Shown one piece after another: positions 6,675-48,887 of a stretch of 64,000 nt of DNA. The notes beneath the pieces are model-generated. The model was not told the DNA's origin. It ran no database searches and worked only from the letters and a program-made list of their open reading frames with translations. Position numbers and translations under genes: made by a program. This DNA comes from Sphyrna mokarran (lineage: Eukaryota), in assembly GCA_024679065.1 (NCBI GenBank), contig JAGIQG010000003.1, forward strand, positions 91,016,001 through 91,080,000. Direction: 5' to 3'. Position 1 is the stretch's first letter. Each line of letters starts with the position of its first letter.

Positions 6675-6890
6675 GAGCTTCGAAGGAGGGTCATCTCGAC
6701 TCGAAACATTGGCTGGAATTTTACTGTCCGCCTGCCACGGGCAAGGGGCAGACCATGGAAATGTCGGTTGACCTCAGATGGGATTTTACAGTTTTGGGAT
6801 GGGCAAGGTTGTAAAATCCCGCCCATCTATTTTCTCTTCACAGATGCTCTCAGACTGGCTGAGATTTTCCAGCATTTGCTATTTTGTTGA
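6675..6890 (+). repeat. Penelope-derived short repeat with degenerate hammerhead motif, interrupted by a MITE
   Basis: CGAAGGAGGGTCATCTCGACTCGAAACATT | insert | ...TCTCTTCACAGATGCT...GCTGAGATTTTCCAGCATT. The same family recurs at about 7922, 15400, 21300, 32797, 33050, 37070 and 41265/47345. Confidence 0.7.
6711..6824. mobile_element. ~115 bp Harbinger-type MITE
   Basis: TIRs GGCTGGAATTTTAC / GTAAAATCCCGCCC; flanks ATT/ATC; related inverted copy at 7306-7423. Confidence 0.75.
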
Positions 6891-7305
6891 AGGGAAACTA
6901 TTTTTTGGGAGGCAGCATTCTAATCAGCCACTTCTGAGTTTGCCATCCAGTTAAGTGTAGCAGGCAAGCTCCCAATGATCCCAACACAGTTATTAGACCT
7001 TCAACAGTCCCACCAGGGGAGATGGATACAGAAAAGGCTGGTGAGAGAACATGAGAAACTCAGGGAAGCACCATTAAAAGGGTGAAAATTAATAAATTTA
7101 TTAGATTGAAACAACAGACCCTTCTGATTTGAGGGCCTGTTGTTTAGGCTGTGAGTTCACAGCCTTGGGGGGATTGAGGGGATCTGGGATGAAGCTTTTG
7201 GTTCCATTGCCTCTCACACCTGCAACAGAGAGGCCAACTCCATTTTAGATGGCAGCCTTCTCATGCAGAGAGAGCTTATTTAACAACTATCAAAATGACA
7301 GTCAT

Positions 7306-7423
7306 GGTGGGACGTTACAGCCTTGTTTGACCCAAGACTGGAAAATCCTGCCTGAGGTCAATGGACCTTCTCATTGTCTGCCCTTTGCCCACTCTGATTC
7401 GCATGGCGGGCGGAATGGTAGAT
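7306..7423. mobile_element. Second copy of the same MITE, opposite orientation
   Basis: Reverse-complement similarity to 6711-6824 (AAAATCCTGCCTGAGGTCAATGGAC vs GTCGGTTGACCTCAGATGGGATTTT). Confidence 0.7.
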
Positions 7424-7536
7424 TTAGGAATGAGTGTGCAAAACAGGCCCTGGTCCTGATCTTAAATATGCAATGAATATGTAAAATCCTGAAAACATTC
7501 AGCAGGTCTAACAGCATCTGTGAAGAGTAGTGATGA

Positions 7537-7900
7537 TGTAGAGATGCCAGCATTGGACTGGGGTAAACACAGTAAGATGTCTCATAACATCAGGTTAAAG
7601 TCTAACAGGTTTATTTGGTAGCAAACACTACTAGCTTCCGGAGCGCTGCTCCTTCATCAGGAGAGTGGGGAGTTCTGATCAAAAACAGGGCATATAAAGA
7701 CAAACACTTAATTTACAGAATACTGATTAGCTGTAAAGACACACATTCTAATCAGTATTTTGTAAACTGAGTGTGTGGTCTTTATATGTCCTGTTTATGA
7801 TCAGAATTCCCCACTCTTCGGATGAAAGAGCAAAGCTCCGAAAGCTAGTGGCGTTTGCTACCTAATAAATGTGTTGGACTTTAACCAGGTGTTGTAAGGA
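7537..7900. mobile_element. Penelope-like (PLE) foldback element, inverted pseudo-LTR arms
   Basis: ~150 bp arms at 7580-7730 and 7748-7898 are reverse complements. 9-bp direct repeat TAGTGATGA at 7528-7536 and 7901-7909. Same family as 25367-25913. Confidence 0.8.
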
Positions 7901-10900
7901 TAGTGATGACAGATAAATAATCTGAACTATTAACTCTGTATCTTTACAGTTAGTGGTTTAGATTGATTATGTTTCATCATTAATCTTCATAGACGCTGTC
8001 CAACCTCCTTAATATTTCCAGCATTTTCTGCTTTTAACTTTAGATTTCCAGCTTCGGCATTATTCTGCTCTTCAATATGTAGATTGGCTACCTGTCAATT
8101 TGTAGTGGGTTGGAATGTGTGGGGAACCCTCTGGATGCATCTCTCAGCTATTTTCCCTGACACCCTCTCCCTACTGTTTGTTCCTCCCCCAACTCCACTT
8201 CAAGTCGGAAAAATTCTTGAGCAGGTCCTCCATGATGTTTGGCTAACTGAACTGTAATCCACTGAATTGCTCCTTCTCTAAAACTATTGCCATGACCTAA
8301 ATCACCTTCTCTAAAGGTAAAGCCTGATCGATGTTGGAGAACCTGAAATACTCGCCAACGCTTTAATCATTTTCTCATTCCCATTTCCAAAGAATATTAA
8401 TGGCATCCATATCATACCATCGAATCCAGTGGTGCTTGACTGACTAGGTACATAACTAGGATGCTTGTTAAGGTCCATAAAGTCCATTCTTCCTTATAAA
8501 AGTCTACACAAATTAGCTTCTTTAAGATACACTGAAGCAAACAGTTTAATGGCCAGATCCACACTATGCCAGTGTGTGTTGGGGGCCACATGTGATGATC
8601 GAATCCATTCATCTCAAAAACTTGTTTTTAAATTTAATTAGTTTCTGAAACAAACAGATCATTGTGTTCTGATTTAGAATTATATTCATCACTGAAGCAA
8701 TAGCAACACAGCAGCTCTTTCCAAACCTCCAGACTTGTAAAATTCAAACAAAACAAAAGCTTTCAAAAAAGTAATGTGGCAATAAATATGATTGCACTGA
8801 CTTTGGCTTTGAAATACCAAATGAGCCATAATTTCAATTAATATGAATGATGCTTATCTAGCAATGAACTAATTTTCAAATGTTATAGTTAATTGTTCAA
8901 TCATAGCTTTGAGTAGTTGTTTATGAACTATGGGTTCATGCTTTTAAATAATCAATTTATTTAGAAAAATAGTGCTCTCTTATGAAGCTCTGGTAACTAA
9001 AATAAACATCCTTGTAAGGAGCATTATTTACACAAAATAATATTATAAGTCAAATTGCTATATGTAACATATCGAGAGATATATCTAAGCAGTGATTTTA
9101 GGCTTCAATGCATGTATAACTTTACTGGACTGAAAAAGCTATTGTCACAAATTCATTGTAATCTAATGGCCTATTATCTGACATGTTCTCAGATTGGAAA
9201 CCTTCACAAAGGCAAATGATAAATAAACTGCAACACTCTGCCCTGAATTCCAATCAACCACCTTCTGACAAGTGCCAGGATCAATCCTAAAGAGAAAACT
9301 ACAGAATGATTTTGAAAGGAGATCCATAAACCATTCTATCTCTGCACTGATGAATGCTACTGAATCTCCAAGACAACGCCAACAAGTGACAAATTACTTG
9401 AAGTAAAATTCACATTGCGCTGATTATTGGAGATGGGATGTAAAGTGTAATTAGTTATTAATCTTGAGCCTCTCGGTCTATACACCCTTGAGCAGCACTG
9501 ACTGTATGACCTCAGGTTGAATTTTACCATCTCTTATGGGAATGGGCTGGAAGGCAGGTGCAGAAAAGTGGCAAGTGTCATGCCCGTTTTCTTCCCACTG
9601 CCATGCCAACTTGTCAGCAGTGGAAAACATGGCAACCACCTAAGTGGCAAATTAAGGATCTCTTCCTGCATCTCCTGATGTTTACCCTGAAGTCCACTGC
9701 CACATGAACAGGTACTGAAGTGGGAACAGTTTAGAAGGTTGATTATTAATATTTTCTATCATCTCCATCAATGACAGTAAAGGTAATGATTTTCATTCCC
9801 ATCTGTTTCCCACTTCTATCCAGAAGATATCACCACTCAATGTGGCTGAGTCAAAAACCTGGAATGTTTTCCCTAAGAGCACTGTGCAGTTTAATAAACC
9901 TACCCAGCTCAACTGCAGCAGGTTATGAAGATAAGCCACAACAAACTTTATGCTAGGTATGACTCCAGCCAATAGAGAGTTTTCCCCCTGATTCCCATTG
10001 ATTCCAATTTTGCTAGTGCTCCTTGGTGGCACACTCAGTTAAATGCTGCCTTGATGTCAAGGGCATCACTCTCACCTCATCCCAGGTAAATCTAGAATGG
10101 TACAGTTTTATCTATGAAAAGGAATGTCACAATTCTTTCAAAAATACTGGAGCCAGTGTTTGGGAGACCATTGCTTATGTCGCCCATTATGTAATATATA
10201 AACAGATTAAATAATATTGGTGATCCTGCCTCACTCCTCTTTCAAAGGATTTGGAATATATAACCACCATAAGCTTCAACTTCTCCATTGTACCTCTGGT
10301 TCTTTGTACCTAACTTATTATTTAATAACTTTAATGTGGTTGATTTGTGATACAGTTACTGAGTTTTCTCACTAGATGGGGTTTGTTCCGAGCTGGTCAG
10401 AGACCTTGATTTCCTATCAAGAGAAGTAATTTCAAGGCTATTTTCAGCTTTTCAAAACACCAGGCCGAGAGGTCTCAAGCCATTCATGGTAAATGTTCTT
10501 TGGAACAATGATATGTGTCTGAAAATTGCATCAGGCAATGCCCATTTTTATTTTTATTGTTATATTCAACTTAGTATAGAATTTATTGAGTCGCAGATAA
10601 GAAGATGGTGGTCCATTCCATGTATTCATTATTCTATGTTATAGAGCAGGCACATCAATCTGTTTGACATTCATATACAGAAAGTTAATGTTATGGTTCT
10701 GTTCTTTTCCACCTTTATCTCAATATTGAGCTAAATTGTGGTCTGTTAAACAGTCTGATGATTTATCTTGTGTTGGAAGACCATTCTCTCCTCCAATCCA
10801 ATTTTTGCATATCTCTACTCCAGTGTCTCTATGTATCCCTGTTTAAATTTTATTAAACCAAGATGTTTTAACTTTACTATTTATGTTGAATCTTACGCTA

Positions 10901-10954
10901 GTAAAGGCTAATGCGGGAAGCTGCATTAAATAAAGCTGCATCATGCTCTCCACA

Positions 10955-12100
10955 TTTTATTTTTTTCATGGGATGTGGGCATCACTGGCTAGGCCAGTTT
11001 TTGCCCATTCCTAATTGTTCTGGAGAGCTGCCTTCTTCAATCATTGCAGTCCATGCAGTGTAGGTACATTCATGGTGCTCTTAGGAAGGGTATTCCAGGG
11101 CTTTGACCCAACGACAATGAAAGAATGGTGATTTAGTTCCAAGTCAGGATGGTATAATATTTGGAGGACAATTTGTTGGTGATTGTGTCTTCATGCATCT
11201 GCTTCTCTTTGAGCTTCTACATCTTGAGCTCACTGGTTTAGAGGGTGTGTCAAGGGATTTTTGTGTGATTACTGCAGTGTATCTTGTAGATGGCACGCCC
11301 TGCTGCCAGTGTTCGTCAGTGGGGAGAGAGTGAATGTTGGAGGCAGAGGATGGAGTGCTAATCAACGGGGCTGCTCTGTTCTGGATGGTGTTGTGTTTAT
11401 TGAGTGTTGAAGGAACTGTACTAATCCAGGCAAGTGGAAAGTATTCCATCATACTCCTGTTGCCTTATAAATGGTGGATAGGCTTTAGAAATCAGGAGAT
11501 AGTTACTTTCCAGCCTCTTGATATTTATATGACGAGTTGCGGTTCAATTCTAATCTTGGGTGACTATCTGCGTGGAGTTTGCACATTCTCCCCATGTCTG
11601 GGGGTTTTTCTCCTGGGTGCTCCAGTTTCCTCCCACAGTCCAAAGATGTGCAGGTTAGGTTAATTGGGCATTCTAAATTGTGCCTTAGTTTCGGGGGATT
11701 TAGTAGCATAAATATTTGGGTGTTTTGATTATAGGACCTACGTGGGATTGTGGTTGTTGCACTGTAGGGATTCTATGATTCAGTTCCTGGTCAATGGTAA
11801 CCTTCAAGATGTTGATGGTGATATTTTCAGTGGTGGTAATTCCAGTGGATGTCAAGGGGTGTTGGTTAGCTTCTCTTTTGTTGGGAGATGATTATTGTCT
11901 GGCACTTGTGTGGTGCGAATATTACTTGACATTTATCAGTTCAAGTTTAAATATTGCCCAGGTCTTGTTGCATATGGATATTGCCAGCTTCAGTCTCTGA
12001 GAGGTCATGAATGGTGTTCAACACAGTCGTCAGTGAACATGCCCAATTCTGACCTTATGATGAAAGGACAGTCATTGAAAAAGCAACTGAAGATCATAAG
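10955..12100 (-). mobile_element. CR1-group (jockey-like) LINE 3' portion, decayed, split by a V-SINE
   Basis: Reverse complement of the family at 53092-54200 (CATGGGATGTGGGCATCACTGGC tail; minus-strand MEYFPLAWIS...NTIQNRAAPLI). Confidence 0.8.
11545..11782 (+). mobile_element. HE1-type V-SINE (5' truncated) inside the LINE
   Basis: V-domain GAGTTTGCACATTCTCCCCATGTCTG...CTCCCACAGTCCAAAGATGTGCAGGTTAGG and CR1-type tail CACTGTAGGGATTCTATGATTC. Confidence 0.85.
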
Positions 12101-12344
12101 AGCAATTTTCCTCTTTACTCTGAAAACCTCAAATCATTTCATTTTTATGCAGGATGCTCTGAAATACTGTTTGAAACACATAAGCTCCTTAGTAGATTCT
12201 GGTCTCTTTAGTAGCTAAACAACACAACTTTGCTCTGGAATATTGACTGGATGGAGCCTTCATGGGCAGCTGTAGTGACAGTTGGTAATTCCTATCACCA
12301 TTCTCCAGACAATTGCCCTTGTTCCCTCACTCACAGAGCAGCTT

Positions 12345-12822
12345 TTTGATTTTAATTTGATTTATTATTGTCACGTATTAAAATACAGTGAAAGTATTGT
12401 TTCTTGCACACTCTACAGACAAAGCACGCCATTCATAGAGAAGGAAATGAGAGAGTGCAGAATGTGGTGTTACATTCATAGCAAGGTGAAAAATCAACTT
12501 AATGCGAGGTAAACCCATTCACAAGTCTGACAGCAGCAGGAAAGAAGCTGTTCTTAAGTCGGTTGGTACATGATCTCAGACTTTTGTATCATTTTTCTGA
12601 CAGAATAATGGAAGATAGAATAACCAGGGTGCATGGGGTTCTTAATTATGTTGGCTGCTTTGCTGAGGTAATGGAAAGTGTAGACAGAGTCAATGGATGG
12701 GAGACTGGTTTGCGTGATGGATTGGGCTACATTCACAACCTTGCAGTCTTGGGCAACTCAGGAGCTACACCAAGCTGTGATACAACCAGAAAGAATGCTT
12801 TCTATGGTACATCTGTAAAAGT
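12345..12822 (-). mobile_element. Rex1/Babar LINE 3' end
   Basis: Minus ORF 12554-12736 reads AQSITQTSLPSIDSVYT...KAANIIKNPMHPGYSIF, the Rex1 ORF2 C-terminal signature. AATAATAAATCAAA-type tail at the left end. Confidence 0.8.
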
Positions 12823-13419
12823 TAGGAATTAAACATGACAGTTGTGACATTAATTATTTTTGCCTAGTTTGGTTTTGGCAGTTAATCATTTTAAATTCAG
12901 ACATAGCATGTAAAGGATTCTTAATTGGGCTTCATAGTGTCACTGGGCTACCAAGCCTCCAGGGATCCAAAATGGATACAATTTTGGCCACTTCCAGTGC
13001 ATCCCTGCTAAAGGCCATGTTTAGAAGAGCAATAGGGCTTTTGTATTGTGTGCTAGAAATGTGCAGGGTAAAGAGTTTGTGACATGTCAGTTTGGACCTC
13101 ATAGATCCTATTGAAACTCTTTCATTAACACTGTCAGATGGATACACATTCAGTTTCATGAGGGACCCGCACATTAACGTAATTTAAAGAGTTCACCATT
13201 CAACTTTCAGGTAAGCTTCTTTTGACTTAATTTTGTTGTTGTGAAGTTGTAAGAAGGAATGTTTTTTGTCGTATTGCAGGAGATCTTGCAGGTTGTTTGA
13301 GTGATGCTGCATCTTTGAAAGAAGTGGAATAGAGTTTAAAAGGCTCTCAGCAAAATGTTTTTTCTGACTCATGACAGGGGGTTAAACCTACAGGTCCTCG
13401 TGTGTTTCAGTATGACAGA

Positions 13420-14350: not shown

Positions 14351-15580
14351 TGCTTTGGATGGGCTATCAGTGAGTGGCTCATTAGACTTTACTTTCCCTA
14401 CAGATATCCCCAGCTTTCCAACTTTTTGCTACAACTCTTCACAGCAAACTCTTCATCAAATGTAAAACGCACACCAAAGACCCACTCCAAAACAACTTCA
14501 GCCAAAGCATCTCTAATAAAAATATGAAATGATACTATTCATCCTTTCCCTTGGTCTCTGTCTTGCTGGTGCCTTTGTTATTGTTCTGCTCCTATTTAGT
14601 GTTACCCTGGTGTTTGTTAATTTTCAGAACTTCAGTAACTCCAGAACTCCTTTGAGCAGCTCTGGATATGGAGGGCAGGTTTCAGAATGGACTGCACCAC
14701 CACCACGTGGGTAATAGCATGCTGGGCTGGCCTGCTGACAGACAGCAGCAAGGGCAAAGACAGAGTGGTAGTAACAGGAGCACAAATACTATCAACCAGA
14801 GAGAGAACAGTAGCTCTGTGGAACCAATATGAATCCCCAGTGCGGTACTTCAGCAATCCTGATAATCTGCTAGCAAATTGATTTCTGGCCAGCTGTGAGA
14901 ACCTGCAAGCCCTTTTGAGTGCAGTTATCCACAAGCCCTGAAGCCTGCAGGCTGAGATTATCAATAGGCATAGAGCTCAAGATCTTGGTCTAAGCTTCTT
15001 ACTGCGGCATTCAGACATTTGGTGACTCATGCCTGTGCTGCAGTGCAAACAAAGACATTAGCTCACAGATGCTGCATCACTGCTGAGACCATAAGTGCTG
15101 TCATGAAGTTGGCCAATATTTCCATACTGGAAAAGATGGGTTCCAAGCTCTTTGCAAAACCCTGTGCCAGTTTGGAACCAAATTCCTCCATGCTCCTTGA
15201 CAGTAACAACCGACATTGGTAACAAGCCTACCAATGCACCGAGAATCTCTATATGCTTTCCTATCAGATTTTCCTGCATGCAGCCCCATCAAATGCCTCA
15301 TCTGAGTTCACTGCAGCAGAACATGTCTGCGACCTCACGCACTGAAATGCTGACATAGAGGCTGCTCTTTTCCTGTTGGAGCTGTGAGAAAATACTGAAA
15401 ATATTCATTGGGTCAGGAAGCATCTACAGACAGAGAAGAGTTAATATTTCAGGTTGATGATATATGTTGTTTTTGCTCCCAATTTATTTAATCACTCATC
15501 AATTTAGCTCTTGATAACTGGTAATATCTTGGTGAATCATTACTGCACTCCTCCACAAGGACAGTATATTCTTCCTAATT

Positions 15581-16912
15581 GAGAGACAGGATCTACAGGC
15601 ATTTAGAAACACGAGGGCTGATTAGGGACAGTCAGCATGGCTTTGTAAGTGGAAAATCATGTCTCACAAATTTGATAGTTTTTTGAAGGAGCAACCAAGA
15701 AGATAGATGAGGACAGTGCAGTTGATGTTGTCTACATAGACTTTAGCAAGGTCTTTTATGAGGTACCGCATGGTAGGTTGTTGCATAAGGTTAAATCTCA
15801 CGGGATCCATGGCGAGGTAAGTAAATGGATACAAAATTGCCTTCTTGACAGATGCCACAGGGTGGTTATAGAGAGTATTTTTTTCAAACTGGGGGCCTGT
15901 GGCCAGTGGTGTGCCTCAGGGATCAGTGTGTGTCTATTGTTATTTGTCATTTATATTAATGATTTGAATGAGAATATAGGAAGCATGATTAGTAAGTTTG
16001 CAAGTTTAAGATTGGTGGCATAGTGGACAGTGAAGAAAGCTATCTCCAATTGCAACGGGATCTTGATCAATTGGGCCAGTGGGCTGACGAATGGCAGATG
16101 GAGTTTAATTTAGACAAATACAAGATAATGCATTTTGGTAGATTGAAGCAGGACAGGACTTACTCAGTTAATAATAGGGCATTGGGGAAAGTTACAGAGC
16201 AAAGGGATCTAGGGATACATATTCATAACTCCTTGAAAGTGGAGTCACAGGTGGACAGAGTGGTGAAGAAAACATTCAGCATGCTTGGTTTCATCAGTCA
16301 GAACATTGAATACAGGATTTGGAATGTTTTATTGAAGTTGCACAAGACATTGCTAAGGCCACACTTGGAATACTGCATGCAATTCTGGTCACCCTTTCAT
16401 AGAAAGGATATTATTAAACTAGAAAGAGTGCAGAAAAGATTTACTAGGATGGTACCAGGATTTGATGGATTGAATTTTCAGGATAGACTGGGACTTTTTT
16501 CTCTGGAGCATAGAGGCTGAGGGGTGATCTTATAGAGGTCTATAAAATACTGAGCGGAATAGACAAAGTAGATATCAATATCTCTTCCCAAAGCTAGGAG
16601 AGTCTAAAACTAGACAGCATAAGTTTAAAGTGAGGGGGGGAGAGATACAAAAGTGTCCAGAGAGGCAATTTTTTTTACAGAGGGTGGCGAGTGTCTGGAA
16701 CAAGCTGCCAGAGATAGTAGTGGAGGCGGGTACAATTTTGTCTTTTAAAAAGCATTTGGACAGTTACATGGGTATGATGGATGTAGAGGGATATGGGCCA
16801 AATGCTGGCAATTGAGATTAGCTTAGGGGTTTAAAAAAAACGGGTGACGTGGCCAAGTTGGGCAGAAGGGCCTGTTTCCACGCTGTAAACCTCTATGACT
16901 CCATGACTCTAT
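15581..16912 (+). mobile_element. CR1 (HER1-like) LINE, 5'-truncated RT C-half plus 3' UTR
   Basis: SQHGF..GKSCLTNL, VDVVYIDFSK, ORF 16023-16520 LQRDLDQLGQWADEWQMEFN...RPHLEYCMQFWSP...LERVQKRFTRM; 3' tail (CTATGACT)n. It sits inside an older minus-strand CR1 remnant (~15520-15580 and 16913-17110). Confidence 0.95.
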
Positions 16913-21218: not shown

Positions 21219-22259
21219 AATGGTTAATGACATCAGCGGGATAGTAAGAACCTGCCGGCGGCAATGATGGACCACTTCTGCTACCTGAAAATCGTAGCCA
21301 TTAATCTTGTTTCTCTCACCACAAATTCAGCCAGACCTGCTGAGTATTTGCAGCATTTCTGTTTGATTTTGGATTTGCAGCATTTGGAGTATCAAAAACA
21401 AACTTTTCAAAACTATTTATCCATTTGTTTGTCATTTGTGAGAATCTGTTGCGTGCAAATTGTCTGCTGTGTTTTCATTAAAAATGGTGATTGCACTAGA
21501 AAAGTAATGAATCTGATATAAAATACTTTGAATGTCTTCAGGCTATGTCTGAGCTCACAAAAATCTCCATGCTTTTTTCAAATTCCTTTTTAGTTAATTA
21601 GGGAAGAGGGATCAAGGGTATAAAATAAGGATTGCTTTGCATTTTTTTGTGCTGATGCTTTTATATGTTGGTTGGATGTTAATTTGTATACAAATGGGGT
21701 TGGTTGCTCGCTTTACTGTGAGAGAGGACGTTTTCACTTTAGGTTTTCTGATCAGTTTCAATTTAACATTGGCGTGATCACACTTGAAATAAATGGGCCT
21801 GTGCCAGTGTTAAAAAGATTTTGATGGGATCAGTCTAGGCCCATGGGTAGTTTTGTGGATTGCTACATTGGCAAGCAGTTTGTGTTTGCCCCTGTGAGGA
21901 GCTTCAGACAATGAGCCATTAAGCATGCTGTTTGTACTCCTGTGGAGAAGAGCCAACACAGCATGAAGCCTAACATATAATGCTTAAGGGCCTGCAAAAT
22001 GGTGATAGCTGGATTATCAACTGCCTGCTCATGAACAGAGAAAGAAAACTGAACAAAGGTCAAAGGCAAAGCTCTACACAATTCCAAAGAAACATTTTTT
22101 ACATTGTTTATCAAAAGAAAAAGATGCATGATGACATTAGATGAAAGGTTCATGACGCAAGTACAAACTAAATAGAACAGGAGTACCAAATGATGAATGG
22201 AATTCCTGAGTTGCCTTTTTCTTCTCCAGCAGTTCCTAGGGACTGAGAGTGATTTTCTT

Positions 22260-30030: not shown

Positions 30031-30259
30031 ACTTAGTGCTTTCTTTCTGTATTTCAATAAAATGGAAAATACAAAGCAAGATAAAGGGCAGAATTCTCCA
30101 AACTCGTATGCCCTGTCCCCATTGCCAGGATAAACAGAGAATTTGGCACTCAGCAAGAACTCCATTCACCCAAACGGGACTAGAGAATCCCAGCGGGGGG
30201 TAATGTCGGAATGGCAATAAAGGCAAAAGGAATCAAAAGTTTCAGTTCCAAACTGTTGC

Positions 30260-32442: not shown

Positions 32443-32445
32443 TGG

Positions 32446-32796
32446 GGTGGAATATTCCTGTGAGGAGACCTTGGCTACAATTCTCCCATTTCACATGCCC
32501 CACTAATGCTTCCAACAAGAACGGACAATTTGGTGCTAAGCCAAATCTCCATTCACTGCGGCAGGACTGGAGAATCCCAGCCATGGGTGAGGTCAGAGAG
32601 TTCGGCCATTGTAATGAGATGCAAATATATTGAAATAATTTATTGTGGTCGGAAATGCAGCTTGTCATTCACAGCTGGAGTGCACAATCACAACCTGGTT
32701 TTACGACGATGTGAGACTGATTTTTATCCTTCTCATGATATTTTCTTCTCCCATCTGCCATGGTGTTGGCTGCAAATAGGTATGGAAAATTTGGCC
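32446..32796. mobile_element. Harbinger-type MITE(s)
   Basis: Termini GGTGGAATATTCC / GGAAAATTTGGCC; the right end abuts ACTAACTC of the hammerhead repeat. Confidence 0.6.
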
Positions 32797-33110
32797 ACTA
32801 ACTCAGTTTGTCTCTCCACAGATGCTGTCAGACCTGCTGAGCTTTTCCAGCATTCTTTGTTTCGATTTCAGATTCCCACTAGGTATTTTGCTCTTATTTG
32901 CTATAGATTGAAGCTGAGTTGACTGCTATCATATATGATGACAGTGCAGATTTTATGCCTTGACTTGCAGATTTGTTTATTAATGAGAGTTAAGGGATGT
33001 CCCATATAAATGAATTCAAGGAGTGTGATGGGACATTTATATAGAAGCTGAATGTGCTGGAAATACTCAGCATATCTGACAACGCATGGGAAAAGAGAAA
33101 CTGAGTTAAT

Positions 33111-34050
33111 GGGTAGGATTTGATTGATGCACTTGATATTTCAATGGTGGGAGTAAATGCCTTTCAGAAACATACTCTGGTGGATAACTGGATCTCTCCT
33201 GTTTTTGTGAAGGCTAGGCAGTTCATAGGATGGTGGCAAGGAAGCTATCCAATTAATAGTGCCTGTAGCCTACATGTAGCTGCAATTTTACCAGGCACCA
33301 GTGCAGCATTCAGACAACTGAAAATCAAAATATAGAAGAATGAGGCAGAAACAGTAAGCAGTCGGCAATGAAAAGCAAAGGTAGTCCCATGACTTCAGGA
33401 TGCCATCCTTGACACTTCTGAACACGTAGCCTCTGAAAGAGCCAGCTCCTTTTTCCATAGAGCAAAAGAATGTCACCAGTGTTAACCAAAAAAGGCATGG
33501 GTGGATGCAATAGTGAGAAGCAGAGGAGTTGTGACTAGAACCTGGGACAAGAACAGAAAGTGCTTGAATCACTTACACCAATCTGGAAAGGTGAGTGGCA
33601 TACATTAACAGTCTTCTTCTGAAAGCCCAACATTAATTGAAAGGCACCCATAAAATCAGAGGCCAGGGGATAGACTCATGCATGGGGCAATCTCAAACAC
33701 CAATGTCTATTGGGGTATCCTGTCATTATGATGTAGCAAAGTCCCAGATTCAGATATGCTGCATTGAGATGGCTGAATGGTCCTCTCACCATGCCATACC
33801 ATATCATAGGTATGACACTAAATGTTTACCTTGCCCTGGCTGAAGGAGCATTGAAAGCATTGACATTGTCCAGGTTCACGCCTAAAGGAGAAGCTTGCCC
33901 AGAATTTCAGGGAACATTAGTTCACCAGAGATGGAGTAACCATGATCATTGACCTGGTGCTGATGGTGGAGGAAACTTTGGGAATTGTTGGGGTCACTGC
34001 AGGGTAGCTGTTGCCGAGTTCGAGGTAGACCTAGCAAGTATGAGGAATAT
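33111..34050 (+). mobile_element. Harbinger left end with decayed Myb/SANT exon
   Basis: TIR GGGTAGGATTTT directly after GAGTTAAT. ~33390-33590 resembles the Myb exon (VRSRGVVTRTWDKNRKCLNHLHQSGK) and ends at a GTGAGT donor. Right boundary unclear. Confidence 0.6.
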
Positions 34051-36769: not shown

Positions 36770-37193
36770 ATAGCTGCTTGCACCCTGTCAGGCATCCTCT
36801 TCCACCTTCAAAGCTCCTCTGCATTTTTCAGTTCTCTGCCTCTGGTCCTCTATATCTCCCATCCTCTGTTCATCTCAGCATCAGTGTCAGAGCACTGTCA
36901 CCTCGGCCCTATTCTTTGGTGCTCTCTCCCCAAAACTCTTTGCCCCTCCTTACTGTTTTCCTTTGTACACCTTCATCAAACACACATATTTTTGCTACAT
37001 CCTTTTCGTTGAACAGCCCTGATGTAGTACTTGCTCCTGTTAAGGTAAAATAGAAAATGGTGGTCTGTGAAGAGAAAAAAGATAAGGTTAATGTTTCAGT
37101 TCACTGACCTGCCTGCTCCTCATTATTTCCCTATAAAATGCTGTGAGACATTTTGCACATAAAAACACTTTATATAAATGCAAGTTGTTATTG
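36770..37193 (+). mobile_element. L2 LINE 3' end
   Basis: Pyrimidine-rich sense strand ending TATATAAATGCAAGTTGTTATTG. Confidence 0.6.
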
Positions 37194-38119: not shown

Positions 38120-38930
38120 TTTATTTATTAATTCACGGGCTGTGGCCTCACTGTTAGCTAAGCTAACAATTATTGCCCATCCTTAATTGCCCTTGATGGT
38201 GGTTGTAAGCTGCCATCTTGAACTGCTGTGTTAAATATGATGTAGTCACACCCACACCGACCTGACACAGCAGCAATGAAGGAATGTTGAATAGTTCAAG
38301 TCAGGGTTGTGCGTGAGAGGCGGGGAGCACTTGTAGATGATGGATTTCCCTTCAGCCTCAGCCTCCTTATTCTTTGGAGAGGGGGAACAGAGATTGTGGG
38401 TTTATGTGTGCTGTCAAAGAAGCCTTGTTGAATTGCCACAGTCCATCTTGGGACACAGTGCCACCACTGTGTGCTGGTGGGGGAGGAAATTAATGTTTGA
38501 GGTGGTGGATGCGGTTCCTTTCATGTGGACTGCTTTGTCTTAGAAGGTGTCAGACTTCTTAAATGTTTTAGAAGTGGAAGTCATGTAGTTACCGGGAAAC
38601 CATTCCATGACTTGTGCCTTGTAGATGGGAGCGTCAGATGCTCAGTCATCCCTAACTTGCTGAAAATACCCAGCCTCTGATTTGCTTGGGTGACCATAGT
38701 ATTTATGAGGTTCATGTAATTAAGGTTCTTGTCAATGGTAACCCTGAGGATATTGATGGTGGGGGACTTAATGATGCTGATGCCAATGAAAGTCAAGGGG
38801 AGATGGTTAGATTCTCCCTTGGAGATGATCATTGTCCAGCAAAAGTGTAACACAAATGTTACTAACCATTTATCAGCCCAGGCCTGGATGTTTTCTAGCT
38901 CTTTCTGCATGTATGGCCACTTGCTCTGAG
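38120..38930 (-). mobile_element. CR1-group LINE 3' portion
   Basis: Minus ORF MQKELENIQAWADKWLVTF...PTINILRVTIDKNLNY...QRLG; same family as 53092-54200. Confidence 0.85.
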
Positions 38931-39044
38931 CATTTTCAAACTGATATCTAAATGCAGAGTCCAGTCAATATCATGTGAATTAATAATGTATGAACTGTGT
39001 CAGGAAATATTTGCTCTGTCACATATTGCTTTAACACATTAAAT

Positions 39045-39132: not shown

Positions 39133-42100
39133 GAACATGGAAATAATTGGCTTTTCCCAAATTTCAATAATTGGAGTCATAAAATCTTATTTATTATTAT
39201 TTATTAATTGTTATTATTATAGTTAAAGGGTTTCCTTACACAGAAGGGCATTTTATCTCAAAATATCTTTTCTATCTCTGGAAAACTGCATAGTATTGTT
39301 GTATGATATATATGCCTGGATGCTGTTGTAACGTAAAAGTGCTTGATGAAGCAAGGATTAATGTGGGATTGGAGAATAGCACGACCATAGGGCCATATAG
39401 AATGTATAAGTCACTTGGTAATAGACTGTAGAACATTCTAGAGAAAAAACAGCCTGCATGGAGCAGCACTATGCATGATAAAAGTAATTGGGATCTGTAC
39501 ATAGTTAAAGACTAATAATAAATGGTTCTGGTTTAGGCACTAGAAATTTCAAGATGTCATCTCTGAGACAAAAAATTAACTTATTATGCAACAAGGTGCT
39601 CAGCTTTGGCACCATAACATATCAAGTACTCTGCAAATACAAACTTTTAACCAGAAGTCCTGTAGTTTCTGAATAAGATTTACAACTTAGTGCTAATATA
39701 AAGCTAATTTTATCCTTTGTGCCCATATTCAGTAAAAAAAAAGGTTAAATCAGGATACTCATAACAAAAGAGAGAGTTTACACAACGTCAACCCTGGTCT
39801 GGTCTCAGGGAAAATGGTGGAAGAATGGCAGTCTCCTCATTTTTGTTTGTTTTAAAATCAATCTCCACCCATTTCTGGAAATAACAACTTGTGTGTGCCA
39901 TATTTCCTGCGCTTCTGGAACACTTTGGCTGGAATTTTCTGGCCATTCATGCCGATGGGATCTTTCAGTGCTGCCAATGGTACAGCCACTGCAGATTTCC
40001 TGAAGACGAGGGGTGCATTCAATGGTAAACATAAAAGCCTTTAAGGGGAAACAAATGGGGAAGAAAGAAATGGGAATTTAAGATTCTAGATGAGATAAGT
40101 TGGAGGATGGTTGTGTGGAGCGTATGCACCACATTGATCAATTGGATTGAATGACTTATTTTTGTGTAGCCCGTTCTGTTCAACTCTATGTGACAGATGT
40201 GAATAAAACTGCAATAAAATCAGATTTAAAAATATTGGTTTCACAAGAGTATGATTATCTATATATACATTAAATTAACATTTAATGGCCTCATTAAAAT
40301 TTTGTAGTGGATGGCCTTAGTCCTGGCTTGAACTTGATATTTTACCCACTTCTGTGACTCAGCTGAATTGAAATCATGTAGTTTAAGCATATGGAAGGTA
40401 TTCAATTTCCCTGAATGCTTCAGTACAATTTAATCAGTTAAACTGCTAAAATACATCTACTTTGCTTCTTGCGCTCCAATATTCAGTTTGTCAGAATTAA
40501 TTTATGTATATCCAAAGGATGGATTTTAAGATTTTTGAAAAGCATAGTTTTTTTAACTTGTTTATTGCTGCCAAGATTATGTACAATTGAACCTTTTTGT
40601 TGTGTCCTTCATAAACATCAATAAGCATATTTCACAAATTTTATCTTTCCTCATTGTAATTTGAGTTCATAGGTTGTTTTGAGCAAAGTTAAAATATGAC
40701 AGAAAATACAAAATTCTAATTTCTGTACTGTAATAGGGAGAGATGGATAGAAACAAACAGAGGCTTTGTCTTCCTAATCTGAGTTACCTTTTCAAAACTT
40801 AAATTGCATTTTGAAAGCATGTAATTCTCTTTGAGGTAAATGTACAAGGAGGAAATAAGTCAAAAGTGAGGGGTCCCTTTTTCTTATAGTTTTCCTTGGC
40901 AAGATGGACGATTGAGGTGAGGACATACTAGAGAATTAATAGTGAGATGAATGATAGTGGCATAAAGTGTACAGGAATTGAACGGGTTGCTCCAAGAATT
41001 AGAGTAATGAGGGAGTGTTGGGTAGTTGGGCAGAGTGAAAATTGAAAAATTATTGGAGATGCACTGTATGCAGTAGGGGGAAGGGATAACAAAGAGGCTG
41101 CTGAAAGTCGCAGTCTACATTTTCCTCACAATTCACAGTGGCTTCTTCATACCTACAAAATGCCATGCCAAATAGTAGCTCCCATCTGTAAGGGACGAAT
41201 CAGAGACCAATGAAAAGAGAAGAGGGCAGAGAGAGAAGTAAAAATATAATAAAAATATAATAGTGCAGGTGCTGAAAATTTGAAATAAAAACAGAAAATC
41301 TGGAAAACTCAGCAGGTCTGGCAGCATCTGTAGAGGAGAAACAAAGTAAATGGGGGCAATTCTCCCAAAAGTACTGAATTGGCTGTTCTGACAGTTCAGC
41401 TTCTCACCCACATCTCCACGCTCTGTGCAGTGCAAAGGGCCCAGTCGTGAATATTTTTAAATGTTCAGGGGAGGGCAGGCCCAAGAGCCTGAAATCAGCA
41501 GGATGATTGGGAACTCTTGCTTACACACATCGCTGGGAGATCGTGGTAAAGTCCTCTTAGCATCTAAATCACCATATACATTGCTGGCTTCCACAACTTC
41601 CCCCCTTTCCCCTTTTCTGGCCCCAGAAATTCTGACATTTCTGGCCTCATCATTGGCTCCAGCCCCACATCACCACCCCTGGCCTCCACCCCTGCCTTCA
41701 TCGCCATCTCCTACAACCCTCCCACAGAAACATTGCTGGTTTCATTGTTGTCTCCCAAAACCGTCCCACACAGATAACCCCCCTCCCCCACCCCCACCCA
41801 ATCTCCTCCCACACACAGTCATGGCTGCCTACTCATCTCATGTCCCCATCAGCATTATCTTCCATCCCTTGAACATACTGTCTTTACTGCTGTCCTGCAG
41901 AGAACTAGACATGCGTAACCCCAGCTTGTGATCATTCCCTCTCTTGAATGGGAGCCTTGAGTATTCGACGCCCCTCCATCCTCCGGACACAGCAACCAAT
42001 CGATTAGAAGCCCTGAGTATTGCACCACTCCCCTGGACATAGCAGCCTATTGAATGGCAGCCAATCAGCACCCTGAGGGATGAATGACACTCAACTGAAT

Positions 42101-42239
42101 GCAGCCTTCAAAATCTCTCTCAAGAATTTGTTGCCAACAGCCCCTTGACTGGCTGCACTCACTACACCTACACTCCCCTAATAAGCCAGAACGGTATGTA
42201 AGCTGCAGGAATGGACACACAGCCAATCATGCCATAAAG

Positions 42240-44179
42240 ATGGCTGCTTGTAAATCAGCTCCCAGATTTTCTGAGGCAGATCAGGAGCACTGCTCAATGC
42301 CGTGGAGGAGAGGCATCATCGTCTGTTCCCTGGCCAAGGCCCCAATCCAAGGGGTGCCTTTACCCATGGCATTGTGGGAGGAGGTGGCAGAAGGGGTGAA
42401 TGCCAGGAGCCTGACACAGCGCTCTGGCAGGCAGTGACGCAAAAAAATGAATGATGTTCTGTGAGCAGCAAGGGTAAGTGAGCATCCCTGTTGAACTGCA
42501 CACATGCTTGGCCTGGATCTCCAATCCTACTTAGATACCTGAAGGCCATGCAACAAGTGATCCTTCTCCCAGGAACAGAATCTAACCCATTCCCCTTACC
42601 CCTCAGCAAGTACCTTCCAGTGGTGACCCCTTTCCCTGAAGCTGTCAGCACAATGCAATATGTTAATGCTTGTCATCCACCTTATGTTCCACAGGAAAAG
42701 AACATCCACAATGCACAGACAGGTGGTGGTGTGCCTGACCTGCGGCAGCTGAGTAGCATGGAGGAGCATGCCATAGAGTTGGCAGGGTGGGGTGATGGAC
42801 CATCCAGAATGGTCACCGGCAGTCAGGTCAGTGACCAGCATGCAAGTGAGCAGAAGTGCACCCTCAACCTCAGTCCTCCTCTAAGTAAGTGTGATGCTGC
42901 ATGGAATATTTTGCCTCCCTCTCCCTAATGTGTATTCTTTTTTTCCAGTTCTGGATCCAGAGGAACCTGGCCCTTTGGATGGTGCCACCACCCTGCTGCT
43001 CTGGAGCAAACTGCCCACGACTCTCTGGATGACACATCGGATGGAAGCACTGAAGAATCCTCCGAGGGCAGCACCACTGAAACGTCACCGGCACTTACCA
43101 CACAACCCACCAATAGAGAGACGATCCCCATGATGGTACCTTGAGTGGATCATGATCTGGTGAGCACATCACAGTTTCTGATGCACGTCGGGTGGAAATG
43201 GGCACATTCGGAGGCTCGGGCACAGAGAGGTTCGCTGGAAGCCAGGATCCAACTGTCCCCAAGCCAGCTGCTGAGTCTCTGGGTTTGTTCCTCCCAAGAC
43301 TGGTGAAGATGCATCAGGAAACCCAAGGAGTTGTGGAAGATCTGTCAGCAACCATGCTGCAACAGCAAGGCTGTTTAGGGGAGTCAAACAGAGTGCTATT
43401 GCAGGAGATGGTGCCGACACAGTGTGATACCCAGGCCAACGCTGCAAGGCTGGCAGTGGAAAATCTGGCTCAGGGATCTATCCTCATCCTGGAGACACTA
43501 CGGGTTATGGGTGGGTGTGTTTCCAGCATCCTGGAGGCACAGAGTTCGATGGTCATGGGTGTCAGTGGGAAACACTGCTGGCCATGGCTGAGACCATTGC
43601 TGGCTTTCTGAAGATGCAGCAGACCGTAGCTGTGAGCCCAGGCTCAGATGGCTATTGCAGAGCAACTCCAGAGACTGGCTTGCTCACAGAATGCTGTAGT
43701 GGAAGTACTCCAGAGCTCGGCTGAGTCTTACCGGGCCAGGGCTGAGGAATCACAGACCATGATGCAGATGCATCTAGGCATCCAGGACTGGCAGAATCAG
43801 ATGATGCTGGAGTTTAGTCCCCTACTGTGGCATATCCTGGAATGCCCTCCAGGGCTTCAGGGTACCCCAAAGGAAGAGGAAGGCTTGAGCCGACATCGAG
43901 GTCTTCCACCCACGAAATTCCGCATGTCCAGAAAACTACTGATTCCCCCTTTACGTACAGTGGGGCATCTTGGGATCACTGAGATGAATAAGGTGGCATC
44001 GAAACAGTGCCATCTGCAAGTCAGCTAGGCCCTTCTGGGTCCCAGCCACCCGGCAACGTCCACCAAGGGCATCACAGGCAACGGGGCATGCACCACAGCT
44101 GGATACCCCCAACTCTGATGTGCGTCCCGGGCTAGCGCTGAGGAGAAGCAGTAGACAGCACAAAGTTAGAAAGTTATAG
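42240..44179 (+). pseudogene. Harbinger Myb/SANT-like (NAIF1/MSANTD-type) DNA-binding protein gene, 3 exons, disrupted
   Basis: MAACKSAPRFSEAD...LWEEVAEGVNARSLTQRSGRQ*RKKMND; donor GT 42474, acceptor AG 42693-94; exon 2 QTGGGVPDLRQLSSMEEHAIELAG; donor 42846, acceptor 42947-48; Q/E-rich coiled region; basic end RRSSRQHKVRKL*; AATAAA 44247. Confidence 0.85.
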
Positions 44180-44799
44180 TTCACTAGAGGGCATGAGTGA
44201 AGGTCAGCGTTAGTCAGGGTTTGGTAATAATTTATGTTGAGAGTACAATAAACTGTTAATTACGCATCAAGCTGTGACTAATGTGTCTCTGATTCTCTTC
44301 CCCGCCTCCACAGTTCAGTGTTCCCGACTCCCAAACATAGAGAAGTTGTTTGTTGAGCCTTGCAGACCCAGCCCATGTTTCAGGGTGTATGCCCTACTTC
44401 CCTCAATATCCACCAAACCCTTGGTGCAAGTGCCTACCCTCTCTCTCAGCCAAAAACATGTTCCCAACCCTCACAGCTACATAGGCCTGGGTGGCAGTGT
44501 GCATTCGGAGTACAGGTAGGAGTCAGACTTGAGTTGTACCAAGGGCACGATCCCAATGCGCACAACAGTGAGTTAGCGTCATCTTCCAGCCCTCAACCAA
44601 AACTCTCAACCGTTGCCAGCCCAGGCACATTAATAAGGTTGAATATTTTGGGGAAAAGGGCGGTGGGATAACAGGAGCAGGGGAAGGGTAATGTGATGGT
44701 TTGAAGGCTCCAGGTCGGTTTGGAGGGATATAGCGGCTGCATTTGCTCCTGGGGTGTGATGCGTATGTATTGGTTGCATCCCCCTCACTGCACAGAACC

Positions 44800-46060
44800 A
44801 GCAAGGTGAAGCGGGATGCAATCAAGGCTCCCTCATTGCCCTTCCCTTCGGACACCTGCCATCGCTGTCCACCCTCTTTTTGCCGGCTCCTCATGCTGCG
44901 GGGCACTCAGCTCGCCCCCTGTCTGTTCCTCCTTGTCCTCCTCCCCCTCCTTCTGTAGCTGGTCTCCCTGCTGCTGGGTGATGTTGTGAAGAGCTCAGCA
45001 AATGATGATGATGCATGAAGTATGTACAGCGTCATACAGGAGGGCCCCTGTACAGTGGTCCAGACAGTGGAACCGCATCTTCAGCAGGCCAATGCACTGC
45101 TCAACAATGGACCGGATGGCTATATGGGCCTCGTTGTACCAGGTCTCCGCCTCAGTCTTGGACCTACATAGAGGCATCATCAGCCTTGAACTTAGTGGGT
45201 AACTCTTGAAACACAGTAGCCATCCTGGGAGCCTGGGCTGGTCTTCAAAGAGTCCAGGAATGCCCGACTACCGGATCACAAAGCTACCATGGACACTATC
45301 TGGGTGGTGTGCATGATCTTGAGCCAATGGTTGCAGACAATTTGAACGTTTAGGGAGTGGAACTCCTTCCAGTTCACAAATTGCTGTGGCCCTACATGGG
45401 AAGCCCACAATTCAATATGCATGCCATCCACTATGCCTACACATTTGAGATCCTGACGATGGATGTGAAGTCGAGAACCCGGGTCTCCTGCTGTGCATGG
45501 CCCACCTTGAAATTAATGAGCTGCCATGCCCGGGCATAAAGGGCATCTGTGACCTGTCACACAGGTCTGTGTATGGAGGTCTGAGAGATACCAGCTAGTT
45601 CGTCATTGGGAGCCTGGAATGAGCCAGAATCATAGAAATTGAGGGCTGCTGTCACCTTCATGTCAATGGGGAGCAGGTGACAGCTACTCCCCTGGGGTGC
45701 CAGATGTGAGAGCAACTCACAAATGTGACACACAGTGGTCTTGGACAAGTGCAGCTGACGAAGACACATCTCCTCCAAGAGGCCTCGAAGGAATTGCGGG
45801 GCCTGTACTTCCTTGGCCTCAGCACCCTCCATCTTCTGTGCACCCTGTTGGGAGTCTGCTCACCTACCTCCTGGCCCTCAATGTCTGCTTCCTGCACTCT
45901 TTCTTGAGAGTCTGATGGTGGCTGCTTTTGCAGTGGTCTCTCCAGGCCCACCACCTCCTCAGCTGTCGCCTCCTCCTCTCCCAAACACCACCGCACTCCC
46001 CACCCCCCAAAAAAAAAGCTGCTGCCACCAATATGGCCACTCCAGATCGAGCAAACTGAG
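44800..46060 (-). pseudogene. Harbinger HARBI1-like DDE transposase, frameshifted
   Basis: LPIDMKVTAALNFYDSGSFQ...GISQTSIHR, GIVDGMHI (first D), GWLCFKSYPL (second D lost), YNEAHIAIRSIVEQCIGLLKMRFHCLD...ALHN. Confidence 0.92.
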
Positions 46061-48887
46061 AGTTATCTGTGCAGTGAGATTTGGAAAGAGCGTAGAATGA
46101 TGGTTTATTACCATTGGCTGCATTGACCCAGCACCAACCCAATCCCTCACTTGGACCAGAATCCGCACTTGTGGAAGCTGGCAATGCCAACAATCTGTGG
46201 TGCCATGCATGGCCCGATTAGGGTCATGTGAGATTCCGATCATGACAAATGCTAGCACAGATTATGCAGGTTTGGTGTACAGATGTGGGCAATGCGCAAC
46301 CTTGAGTCATTGCATGTGTGCAATTGCAGCATGTGTTAAGGCATGTGTTATTGGTCCCGGTCACAGGGCAGGGACAGCTGCAAATCAGCACCAGATGTGT
46401 GCCCTGTGACAGCAGATTCTATGCAGTCCATGTCTGAACCTCTGTACTCCAGCCTGGAGCAGCAGCTGCTTCATCTGGTTAGGCCTCAGTCAGTACACGT
46501 ACACTCGTACTTCACCCCAGAACACCAGTGGAGTCCCTGACTTTACCCTGTGGAAAGAAGATGCCACTGCAAAGTGCAATGAGGGGTGGCGGGGAGCAGG
46601 AGCTCTCGAGGTTGCCTCTCATAATGTGCTTCAGTGCTGCTTGGAGGTGGGGTGTGGTGGGGAGCTGGAGCACTTGACGCTGTATCTCACACTGTGCTTC
46701 AGCGCTGTTTGGAGAGGGAATGGGTGGTGGGGAGAGCAGGAGGCCTCGAGGCTGCTTCCCACTGTCAGCTTCAGCGCTGCTTGTGGGGCGGTGGGAAGGG
46801 GGGGGGGGGGGGGGGGATAGGTAGGATAGGTGGGAGTGGGACTCCCTGACGGAACCTCACCCAGGAAGCCGTGAGGAAATGGAGGCCTCCCTGAACCTCC
46901 CTTCCCCAACCTCCAGATGTCACTTGTCAATGGGTCAGAACTGAAGGCAGCAGGAGGAAGGTCATCAGGCATCTCCAGGGCCTGCCTGCAACAACCCCCA
47001 TGCTCCGCTAGCAACACTTATCTCCTCACATCCGTTCAAGACTGCTATGCCAGGTCGCGACTTTTAAATACCTAATCTAAATGCGTCAAAATTACAATAT
47101 GCCAAAGAGGTGGGGGACGCAAATTGCTATGTGGATTCCGAAAATGATGCGCCAAGGTAAGTAAGCTCATGCTAAACAGTAGCCTGCCGGTTTTCAGTGG
47201 GTTCCTGGTGATGCCATATTTCTCTGGTTGGGAGATGCATCTGGGTTAGAAAGAATGTCGGAGAACCCGCAAAATAGCCAACAAACACGTCTTCCAGCCA
47301 GACTTGGCTGAAAAGTGGTGGGACATGATGGGAGAATAGCAACCAATGTTTCGAGTGTGTCTGACTCTTCTTCAGGGAGATTATATTAGAGAAAGTAGCA
47401 GAACATGTAGAGAGAAAGAGAAATGACTAAACAGAGGTAACGGGGCAGATAAAGGGAATACCATATTCATTTACTTACTGCCACGGAAAATGCAATAAAG
47501 ACGGTTTTCATTTACAAATTTCACTGTCACGGAAACAAAACAAAACACCACAGAACACTGTTTCATAAGAAATTGTCCTGACTTTGACACATAACTTCCT
47601 GGTTCCCCAGTGTTGGAATTGGGGGATACCCCAAAGATGCACTGAGAAATCCCTCTTGGAAGTTCCCAAATGGGAGTTTACTTTGCAATTGTCCAGAAAA
47701 GCTAACTTCACCTGAACAATAGTGTTGGGTTGGGAACTATCTGACAAAGTGACAACTTGGGATGGTTTTGCCAGTTATATCTTGATAGTTGGTCTGAAAA
47801 TTAGAAGGGAAAAAAAATAACTTCTAACTCTAGACTAACTATTAAAATACCAAAACTGAGCCTCACATGGACACCTCCATACATGACTGCCCCAGCAGAT
47901 TCCCCATTCCACCCCCATCCATGACCTGATCTCCCAGCTTGCTTCAGCATCACTCCAAACACCACCAACCCCATTCGACAACCCCCTCTCCTGTTCCAAC
48001 GCCCCACTTCTGGTCCAACTCAACCACACCCCACCTCGCAGCCTCTAGGCGGCCCAATCCGAATCTCTCTTCCAGTCTGATCCAAACACCTCCCATATCC
48101 TCCTCATTACTGTTCACCTCCTTCCCCCATTTTGATCCAATCCAGCCCACTTGGCTCTCCCCTCCTGGTCCCACCTGACCTAACTCCCACCCCCCGGGAC
48201 CCTTCTGGCCCATCCCAATCTCCCCACGATTGTCTGAAGCACTTACCTTGAAAACTTACCTCCAGTTAAATTGTACCTTTAAACATTTCCTTTACAGCAG
48301 CTAGTAGGTAAAAAGAGGGTGTTCCTTTCTTCTCTGCATCCAAGTTACTCCTTGCTGGGGTGCTTCACTGCTCCCATCTCACCCATCCTGAGTGAGGAAT
48401 ATTGGGCAAGACTGGGCCTTTGCGATTGCAGCAAAAGTAAGTCCATTCAGAGTAATGATCCACTGGAGATTATCAAGATGACAAACTCCTTTATTCCTTA
48501 CTCAACAGATAACAGCCCTATTGTTATGAAATAGCATGACCTCTCACTCCATGAAGATTCACTCATACATTGGGCTACAATCAGTGATCCTAAGGAAACT
48601 ATAAGCATTCAGAAGCTATGTGAAGTGTCATTCAGATCAGAACTAATCCAACCTGACCAATAACCGTCCCATCAGTATACTCTTGAAAGTAATGGAAGGT
48701 GTCATCCTCAGTGCTATCAAGTGGCACTTACTCAATAATAACCTGCTCACTGATGCTCAGTTTAGGTTCTGCAAAGCTACTCAGCTCCTGACCTCATTAA
48801 AGCTTTTGTCCAATAATGGACAAAAGAACTGAACTCAAGAGATGAGATGAGAGTGACTGCCCTTGACACCAAGGCTACATTTGGCTG

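Follow-up and report, generated by a model that had tools for sequence, protein, structure and literature searches.

In the analysed window of Sphyrna mokarran (64,000 nucleotides of contig JAGIQG010000003.1, positions 91,016,001 to 91,080,000, assembly GCA_024679065.1), Harbinger-type transposons were found to adjoin one and the same triplet, RTT, of a short repeat, called here the host repeat, which carries a predicted hammerhead ribozyme and occurs as three subfamilies (A, B and C) differing in stem I and in the triplet. The triplet was found to be an insertion hot spot genome-wide, used at a single offset, with 3-bp target site duplications (TSDs), by independent insertions and within a general target motif. 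The explanation held with good confidence is that several families of Harbinger-type MITEs (miniature transposable elements with inverted repeats) and longer relatives were inserted independently at the triplet, the flanks of which, GAAAC and RRCTC, nearly match the target RASWC-NWN-GWSTY. The triplet was most likely hit so often because its flanks resemble the target preferred genome-wide. The independent insertions at the triplet are estimated to number thousands, and the hot spot is real, undescribed and most likely a coincidence of sequence; no Harbinger insertion into a Penelope hammerhead was described in the literature searched, which consisted mostly of titles and abstracts without Repbase and most subscription journals.

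The 13-mer of the host left half was found 22,346 times genome-wide (backwards control 4,162) and was followed directly by an exact Harbinger terminal inverted repeat (TIR) in 77 cases (backwards control 0), the exact TIRs of the genome numbering 60,693. The triplet was enriched about 315 times over background, or about 390 times net of the control; an enrichment at this offset had been set beforehand by the sequence-only reading as a test that could refute it, and the result upheld the claim. Within the 30 bases upstream of the host anchor 66 TIR ends were counted and sorted by eye, 44 of which were on the triplet and 3 more probably so, followed by minor offsets at +6 (6-8 ends), about -5 (3 ends) and -13 (2 ends). 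The 30 bases after the anchor contained 10 TIR matches, 4 of them being a TIR-like motif of the host itself. In flank-blind samples of MITEs the triplet was occupied in 4 of 170 (2.4%, confidence interval 0.6-5.9%; samples 1/50, 0/29 and 3/91), and about 97% of the insertions lay elsewhere, so that most copies do not sit at one multicopy target as in a Dada-like element. Repeated use of nearby targets was also observed: at the locus L269, near 1500, a single host copy had taken up two MITEs, at the triplet and at +6, and in the C993 block (72421-72550 and 95287-95516) MITEs were inserted in tandem or repeatedly into identical or adjoining targets.

The sequence-only reading had proposed that a target motif be built from Harbinger flanks genome-wide. 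The non-host insertions (92 sites and pooled ends) were found to define the palindromic target RASWC-NWN-GWSTY with an A/T-rich TSD, the same R-A-S-W-C half-site flanked both ends of all four MITE families, and exact TIR ends stood right after RASWCNWN in 4,436 of the 60,693 cases. A target matrix trained on the 92 non-host insertions only, with host sites excluded, ranked the triplet first among the host positions (mean 49-62 times in present-day copies), followed by peaks at -5, -13 and -23 which coincided with observed minor insertions. At consensus sites the matrix predicted 75-375 times background, 173-196 times with purines pooled and 260-450 times after correction for 10-15% decay; 315-390 times was observed. 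In a matched two-sided control, perfect-consensus flanks contained 68 MITEs against 69,877 empty sites and host-type flanks contained 20 against 30,242. The host/consensus ratio was 0.68 (95% confidence interval 0.39-1.13), which means that ordinary consensus sites were filled as often as host sites; the host pattern was stricter on the TSD, and the host count was therefore lowered. The proposal of a dedicated safe-haven landing pad was not supported, given this parity and the large share of insertions elsewhere. A repeat near the start of contig C1 (208000-2600000) was found to carry the perfect consensus AAGAC-GTA-GACTT many times, and the consensus 13-mer was 3.75 times rarer genome-wide than its backwards control.

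Several observations weigh against a hot spot made by sequence resemblance alone. One-sided comparisons left a 2-3-fold excess at host sites, which were filled about 17 times as often as other RAAAYRTT sites and about 40 times as often as other RTTRRCTC sites, the uncorrected matrix giving 6-7 times and 14 times, respectively, for the missing half-site. Insertions also recurred in a second place, the CATAGARTCA-type tandem tail of another abundant repeat (29 genome-wide matches; loci L238 and L245 at 1501), which was filled 54 times over background against 62-293 times predicted; taken with the host excess, this shortfall means that the matrix over-predicts at the tails and under-predicts at the host. 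The +6 offset was over-used (6-8 of 66) though it scored only 5-7 times. The control rate is lowered by the perfect-consensus denominator, in which sites of unknown age are included. At 12% divergence subfamily B seems younger than the MITEs (15-19%) yet is hit, and dating by divergence is therefore crude. The 2-3-fold residue, the tail repeat, the use of +6 and the unmatched site ages leave room for a small extra effect.

Such an effect might be a host-specific boost on top of the sequence preference, provided by a TIR-like motif (GCTGAGATTTTCC) lying downstream by about 30 bases, by a hammerhead-like DNA fold or by selection for harmless sites; this was judged unlikely. It would account for the residual excess of the one-sided comparisons and for the ratio of the triplet to the -5 site (about 44 to 3), which is above what present-day matrix scores suggest, and the host does carry a motif which scores as a TIR (18.5 at window 6857). 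Against this, the two-sided control was without excess, and the parity found there leaves little for harmless-site selection to explain. Subfamily A, in which the TIR-like motif is weaker, supplied 49 of the 77 host matches (sorted by eye), fitting its 37:22 abundance, whereas subfamily C contains the motif yet is nearly unhit; the GAAAC half-site is moreover not optimal, scoring 14 against 30 for GAGAC. The TIR-like motif was observed at window 6857-6870 (+) and in all host copies of subfamilies B and C. A bolder form, in which a Harbinger clade is actively steered to the Penelope-remnant hammerhead by the TIR-like motif or the ribozyme-DNA fold with a 2-5-fold gain over sequence preference, was considered slightly more doubtful again; if true, a DNA transposon would here have gone some of the way towards target specificity for the ribozyme of another mobile element, and the pairing would be conserved across related genomes. 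A link of RNA cleavage chemistry to the DNA cut was rejected by reasoning: DDE transposition places its staggered cut in the ribozyme-sense strand ahead of the triplet and not behind it, and the minor hot spots are at non-catalytic offsets.

The decay of CpG from AACGTT to AACATT had been put forward as the event that creates the preferred ATT target. Taken as the cause, with intact GTT unused, it is very improbable. The CA-state sites were filled at 423 times background, followed by the T-state sites at 240 times and the CG-state sites at 209 times. The CA-state sites were filled 1.5-1.8 times more often and made up 45 of the 77 filled sites against 9,721 of the 22,346 overall (p 0.011, or 0.088 after subtracting controls). 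In 32 two-sided cases the first TSD base was A/A in 20, G/G in 5 and discordant in 7 (Fisher p 0.023), and the A/G agreement of the two TSD copies exceeded what independent decay allows; the share of insertions into already-decayed ATT was best fitted by 55% (18-74%). These excesses favour decay, as does the rarity of G at TSD position 1 among non-host sites, but that rarity is partly decay after insertion because both TSD copies follow a C. The 7 discordant pairs, in which one TSD copy has G and the second has A, mean that GTT is also a target; together with the 5 G/G pairs they record insertion into G-state sites, and CG-state and T-state sites were still filled well above background. CpG decay as the sole cause is contradicted by the discordant pairs and stands as a modifier: the change to ATT raises the preference modestly, which helps and is not required.

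The subfamilies differed in how often they were hit. For the about 17,800 sites of subfamily C there were 3 matches, no more than 2 of which lay in the host, and this is about 40-fold below subfamilies A and B. Its non-CpG divergence was 7% against 15-19% for the MITEs, which makes it the younger, and its matrix score was lower (10-95 times). Subfamily C is likely to be nearly unhit because its spread came later than the MITE burst and because it matches the target less well, two causes which are inseparable here.

The sequence-only reading had taken the insertions for independent events, and its competing explanation, that one composite was amplified as a unit, was checked by families, orientations and trees. 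A set of 36 host-inserted MITEs with resolved ends was drawn from 30 + 30 loci, locus L276 and the window; loci without a resolved second end, other offsets and duplicates were left out. The set contained four families with one MITE unassigned, and the orientation at the triplet was 17:17 among the three related families. The host-inserted copies were at a mutual distance of 0.33-0.39 and at 0.32-0.38 from non-host copies. The host label required 7, 11 and 5 changes on three weakly supported trees, on which these copies were scattered (shuffled means 9.5, 10.8 and 4.3). The shortest inserts were about 50 bp long and the longest 6 kb, and the flanks were unrelated. Several families in both orientations are therefore not one amplified composite, in line with the note's reading of independent events. 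Within families the orientation at the triplet was skewed, 11:1 in family F1 (p 0.006) and 13:4 the other way in family F3 (p 0.049); the skew of F1 agrees with the orientation bias of its TSDs at other places. A strand skew (12:3 in one cluster) was also found among the non-host copies of contig C1, where a random arrangement is expected. Amplification by the retroelement of one or a few MITE-in-host composites as units is hardly credible, for although the skews within F1 and F3 suit it and the quick, poorly supported trees do not force several origins, it runs against four MITE families, host subfamilies A and B, balanced overall orientation, host-inserted copies no closer to each other than to others, label changes near the shuffled means, and inserts of widely differing size in unrelated flanks; family and orientation diversity rule it out as the main cause.

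The host repeat was searched over 1.4 Mb with a profile built from 29 loci and gave 88 matches, or about 63 per Mb. The quoted repeat string of the sequence-only reading was valid as a consensus, but its AACTCTGTTTCTCTC part had 0 exact occurrences in the window. The motif was found to run from stem I through CTGANGA, a single additional A, stem II (5 bp, with G-C as its first pair) and GAAAC-GTY to the other strand of stem I. In an alignment of 26 copies, chosen by core pattern with no pairing requirement, the anatomy of a minimal hammerhead named by the note was found: the core CUGANGA, the extra base, G10.1-C11.1, GAAA, a palindromic 15.2-16.2 and UH. The core pair was C3-G8 in 9 rows and U3-A8 in 9 rows. 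U3 occurred in 9 of 10 GUC-type rows and in 2 of 16 others, which amounts to one evolutionary event; the youngest subfamily, C (7% diverged), contained GUC, and 9 of 10 rows carried the published U3-A8 core variant. The predicted folds of 4 host copies yielded both stems, and 77% of stem and core cells were paired against 16-44% for slid partners, though shuffles were not beaten (38/500 and 60/500). In the window and 7 further-examined loci, no match to the curated Rfam hammerhead model reached the gathering score. The host repeat is predicted to be a hammerhead ribozyme, its self-cleavage being a prediction only. In that predicted structure the duplicated triplet would occupy positions 16.2-16.1-17 and end at the predicted cleavage site, as the note had also put it; the left half-site would be the invariant G12-A13-A14-A15.1-C15.2 and the right half-site the 3′ strand of stem I.

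The Penelope origin proposed for the host was borne out in subfamily C. The repeat was found about 350-400 bp after a long open reading frame (ORF) on the same strand in 3 of 3 loci checked (L039, L316 and L317, all of subfamily C, two having been chosen for long frames). The ORF matched 29 proteins of 595-1208 amino acids, which were single-ORF reverse transcriptases, mostly with RVT_1, PF28514 and PF26215; 3 of the 29 carried an annotated GIY-YIG (PF01541). Direct Pfam scans of the decayed Penelope-like ORF fragments gave nothing, GIY-YIG included. The position of the ORF and its reverse transcriptase and GIY-YIG matches thus establish the host of subfamily C as the 3′ repeat of a Penelope-like element; subfamilies A and B would be the same by homology. 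Close inverted host pairs were frequent (C1 block 7509-7726, locus L313 and window 32797-33110), as reported for Penelope-like elements. At L316:1167-1760 (-) the endonuclease region of the Penelope-like ORF contained a 36-bp tandem expansion with a repeated 12-residue unit.

The idea that insertion destroys the ribozyme was not supported. An intact hammerhead core was kept in only 2 host copies among the 88 matches; a third intact-core match in the 1.4 Mb lay outside the repeat and was unpaired. Most host copies were probably dead or solitary before insertion. At 6676-6714 the MITE end GGCT rebuilds the 3′ strand of stem I, and the predicted fold survives the insertion.

The inserted elements were found to contain the short TIRs and 3-bp TSD of the PIF/Harbinger (PHIS) superfamily, the TSD copies being identical in 19 of 50 flank-blind MITEs and matched at two of three positions in 18 of 50. 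A 5,993-bp element of the window gave a DDE_Tnp_4 match (PF13359, E 4e-9, above the curated cut-off), to which the MITEs appear linked through TIR likeness and target alone. Its second ORF, on the strand opposite to the transposase, looks Myb-like by eye, a likeness which no tool confirmed; it gave no Myb/SANT match in Pfam, and no homologue of the putative Myb piece was found by searching. A short fragment at 33486-33608 of a 790-bp derivative likewise looks Myb/SANT-like, by eye only. The dominant TSDs were ATT, AAT, TAT, ATA, AAA and CAT. CTG or CAG occurred in 2 of 96 half-sites, against the CWG rule of the NuwaI/Harbinger3 type; the flanking C and G were present, but TAA and TTA together made up 4 of 96 half-sites, against the NuwaII target C|TNA|G.

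The portions consulted of two sources give a zebrafish target AAACAC-CWG-GTCTTT for Harbinger3_DR (PMC3016246) and a 15-bp palindromic target AAACACCWGGTCTTT for Harbinger3_DR and Harbinger3N_DR (PMC3016246, PMC2836001), and a 15-bp target preference in vertebrates is stated there (PMC2836001). A 3-bp TSD, a DDE_Tnp_4 transposase and an extended palindromic target are common to those elements and the present ones, and their half-site A-A-S-A-C is close to R-A-S-W-C. The TSD centre here is NWN, mostly A/T-rich, and not CWG, and the preference looks looser. No hot spot in another element is mentioned for Harbinger3 in those portions. The NuwaII group of the PHIS superfamily is described, in the part consulted, from fishes, an amphibian and a turtle as two-ORF elements of about 4.7 kb with a TNA TSD (PMC4482050). 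TIRs of 13-46 bp beginning with GG, a conserved C before and G after the TSD, and two ORFs are shared with it; the TSDs differ, TNA there and the six listed above here, the comparison being by TIR and TSD traits. The elements work like Harbinger3 and NuwaII yet follow neither TSD rule (PMC4482050).

For the minimal hammerheads in the pseudo-long terminal repeats of Penelope-like elements, reported in the consulted portion to need a dimer (PMC4209133), the likenesses to the host repeat were a short stem I, the extra base between 9 and 10.1, the G10.1-C11.1 pair, the palindromic 15.2-16.2 without loop 3 and the U3-A8 core variant, followed by mostly solitary copies, opposed pairs and a place after an ORF of the reverse transcriptase-plus-endonuclease type. 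The copies here, about 63 per Mb, are nearly all decayed, against 4,000-9,000 copies in coelacanth and Xenopus under a strict descriptor, and no DNA-transposon hot spot is mentioned in that portion (PMC4209133). Dada and Pokey, as far as the consulted part of their source describes them, are also DNA transposons that return to a single offset within a multicopy sequence; the Dada families have small-RNA genes as their specific targets, unlike the elements here with about 97% of copies elsewhere, and Pokey, being preferential and not exclusive, is the nearer analogy (PMC3706591).

The five Harbinger-type junctions at one triplet claimed for the window were confirmed: all six quoted junction strings were present at their coordinates, and the element ends at the five sites shared a 14-base register, GGSYRGR-ATT-YT-MC, derived without inspecting the flanks, of which the end at 32796 falls one base short. 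The insertions were of unequal quality, two being clean on both sides, two having tentative far ends and one being one-sided (Table 1). No partner end for the element at 21299 was found within 9 kb, and at the tentative end 32445 the host GAAAC-RTT was missing on the left. Two of the three empty sites named by the note were clear, and that near 7925 was empty but degenerate. Site-bearing host copies were filled in 5 of 8 cases in the window, whereas a random sample of 1.4 Mb taken from 14 contigs had 5 of 75 filled (sorted by eye). At 8% occupancy the probability of at least 5 of 9 filled sites is 3e-4, and several windows of this kind would be expected when about 43,000 are scanned. The window is an outlier and the pattern is real and genome-wide, so that the window owes its richness to luck. 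No filled host site was present in the neighbouring 50 kb, and a regional hot spot was rejected on that ground.

Table 1. Host repeat copies and Harbinger-type insertions in the window
Feature	Position	Strand	Details
Host repeat, left half	6676..6710	+	Degenerate hammerhead core, stem II, GAAAC, TSD copy ATT (6708-6710)
Harbinger-type MITE, 114 bp, family F1	6711..6824	+	14-bp TIRs and internal TIR-like hairpin; two-sided, TSD ATT/ATC
Host repeat, right half	6825..6885	+	Begins ATC; about 5 host bases missing beside junction
Host copy, triplet empty	7921..8072	+	Degenerate, broken further downstream; site at about 7925
Host copy, triplet empty	15387..15455	-	Clear; site at about 15440
Harbinger-type end adjoining triplet	21286..21299	.	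One-sided
Host repeat, right half	21300..21392	+	Begins ATT
Harbinger-type element	32445..32796	.	Left end 32445 tentative; nested second MITE at 32473-32582
Host repeat, right half	32797..32897	+	Begins ACT
Host repeat, right half	33041..33110	-	Begins ATT
Harbinger-type deletion derivative, 790 bp	33111..33900	.	Far end 33900 tentative; TSD match 1/3
Host copy, triplet empty	37064..37121	-	Clear; site at about 37088
Host repeat, right half	41249..41351	-	TSD copy 41349-41351
PIF/Harbinger element, 5,993 bp, decayed, autonomous type	41352..47344	.	15-bp imperfect TIRs; two-sided, TSD AAT/AAT, both host halves kept
Second ORF of 5,993-bp element, broken	42099..42454	+	Myb/SANT-like by eye only
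DDE_Tnp_4 (PF13359) transposase of 5,993-bp element, broken	44998..45512	-	Two fragments, E 4e-9 and 0.002
Host repeat, left half	47345..47382	-	Core, stem II, GAAAC, TSD copy 47345-47347

The window was also found to contain a further Harbinger-type end outside the host repeat at 30086, and a short imperfect tandem array of ATCAAAGCCAGC units at 58165-58617 beside a TIR-like end at 58676. Decayed fragments of a reverse transcriptase of the long interspersed nuclear element type were present at 15996-16520 (+), 38581-38964 (-) and 53287-53697 (+), of which only the first gave an RVT_1 match, a weak one (E 0.0096).

The preferred explanation, insertion by sequence preference, has three parts. 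The transposase would read the target sequence directly, as that of Harbinger3_DR does; about 170,000 copies would bear one and the same near-optimal target because the ribozyme was under selection in the active retroelement; and CpG decay to ATT would add its modest further preference. The hot spot does not demonstrate a new targeting mechanism. The target C|NWN|G with Harbinger3-like flanks, which departs from the TSD rules of both NuwaI and NuwaII, is worth recording, and annotators of repeats are warned that MITE-in-host composites are recurrent and are not a family. The nested insertions allow the host subfamilies to be dated relative to one another, A and B being hit and C not. Most likely, a constraint on an RNA, the invariant core of a hammerhead, has by accident fixed a hot spot for a DNA transposon in more than 100,000 places.

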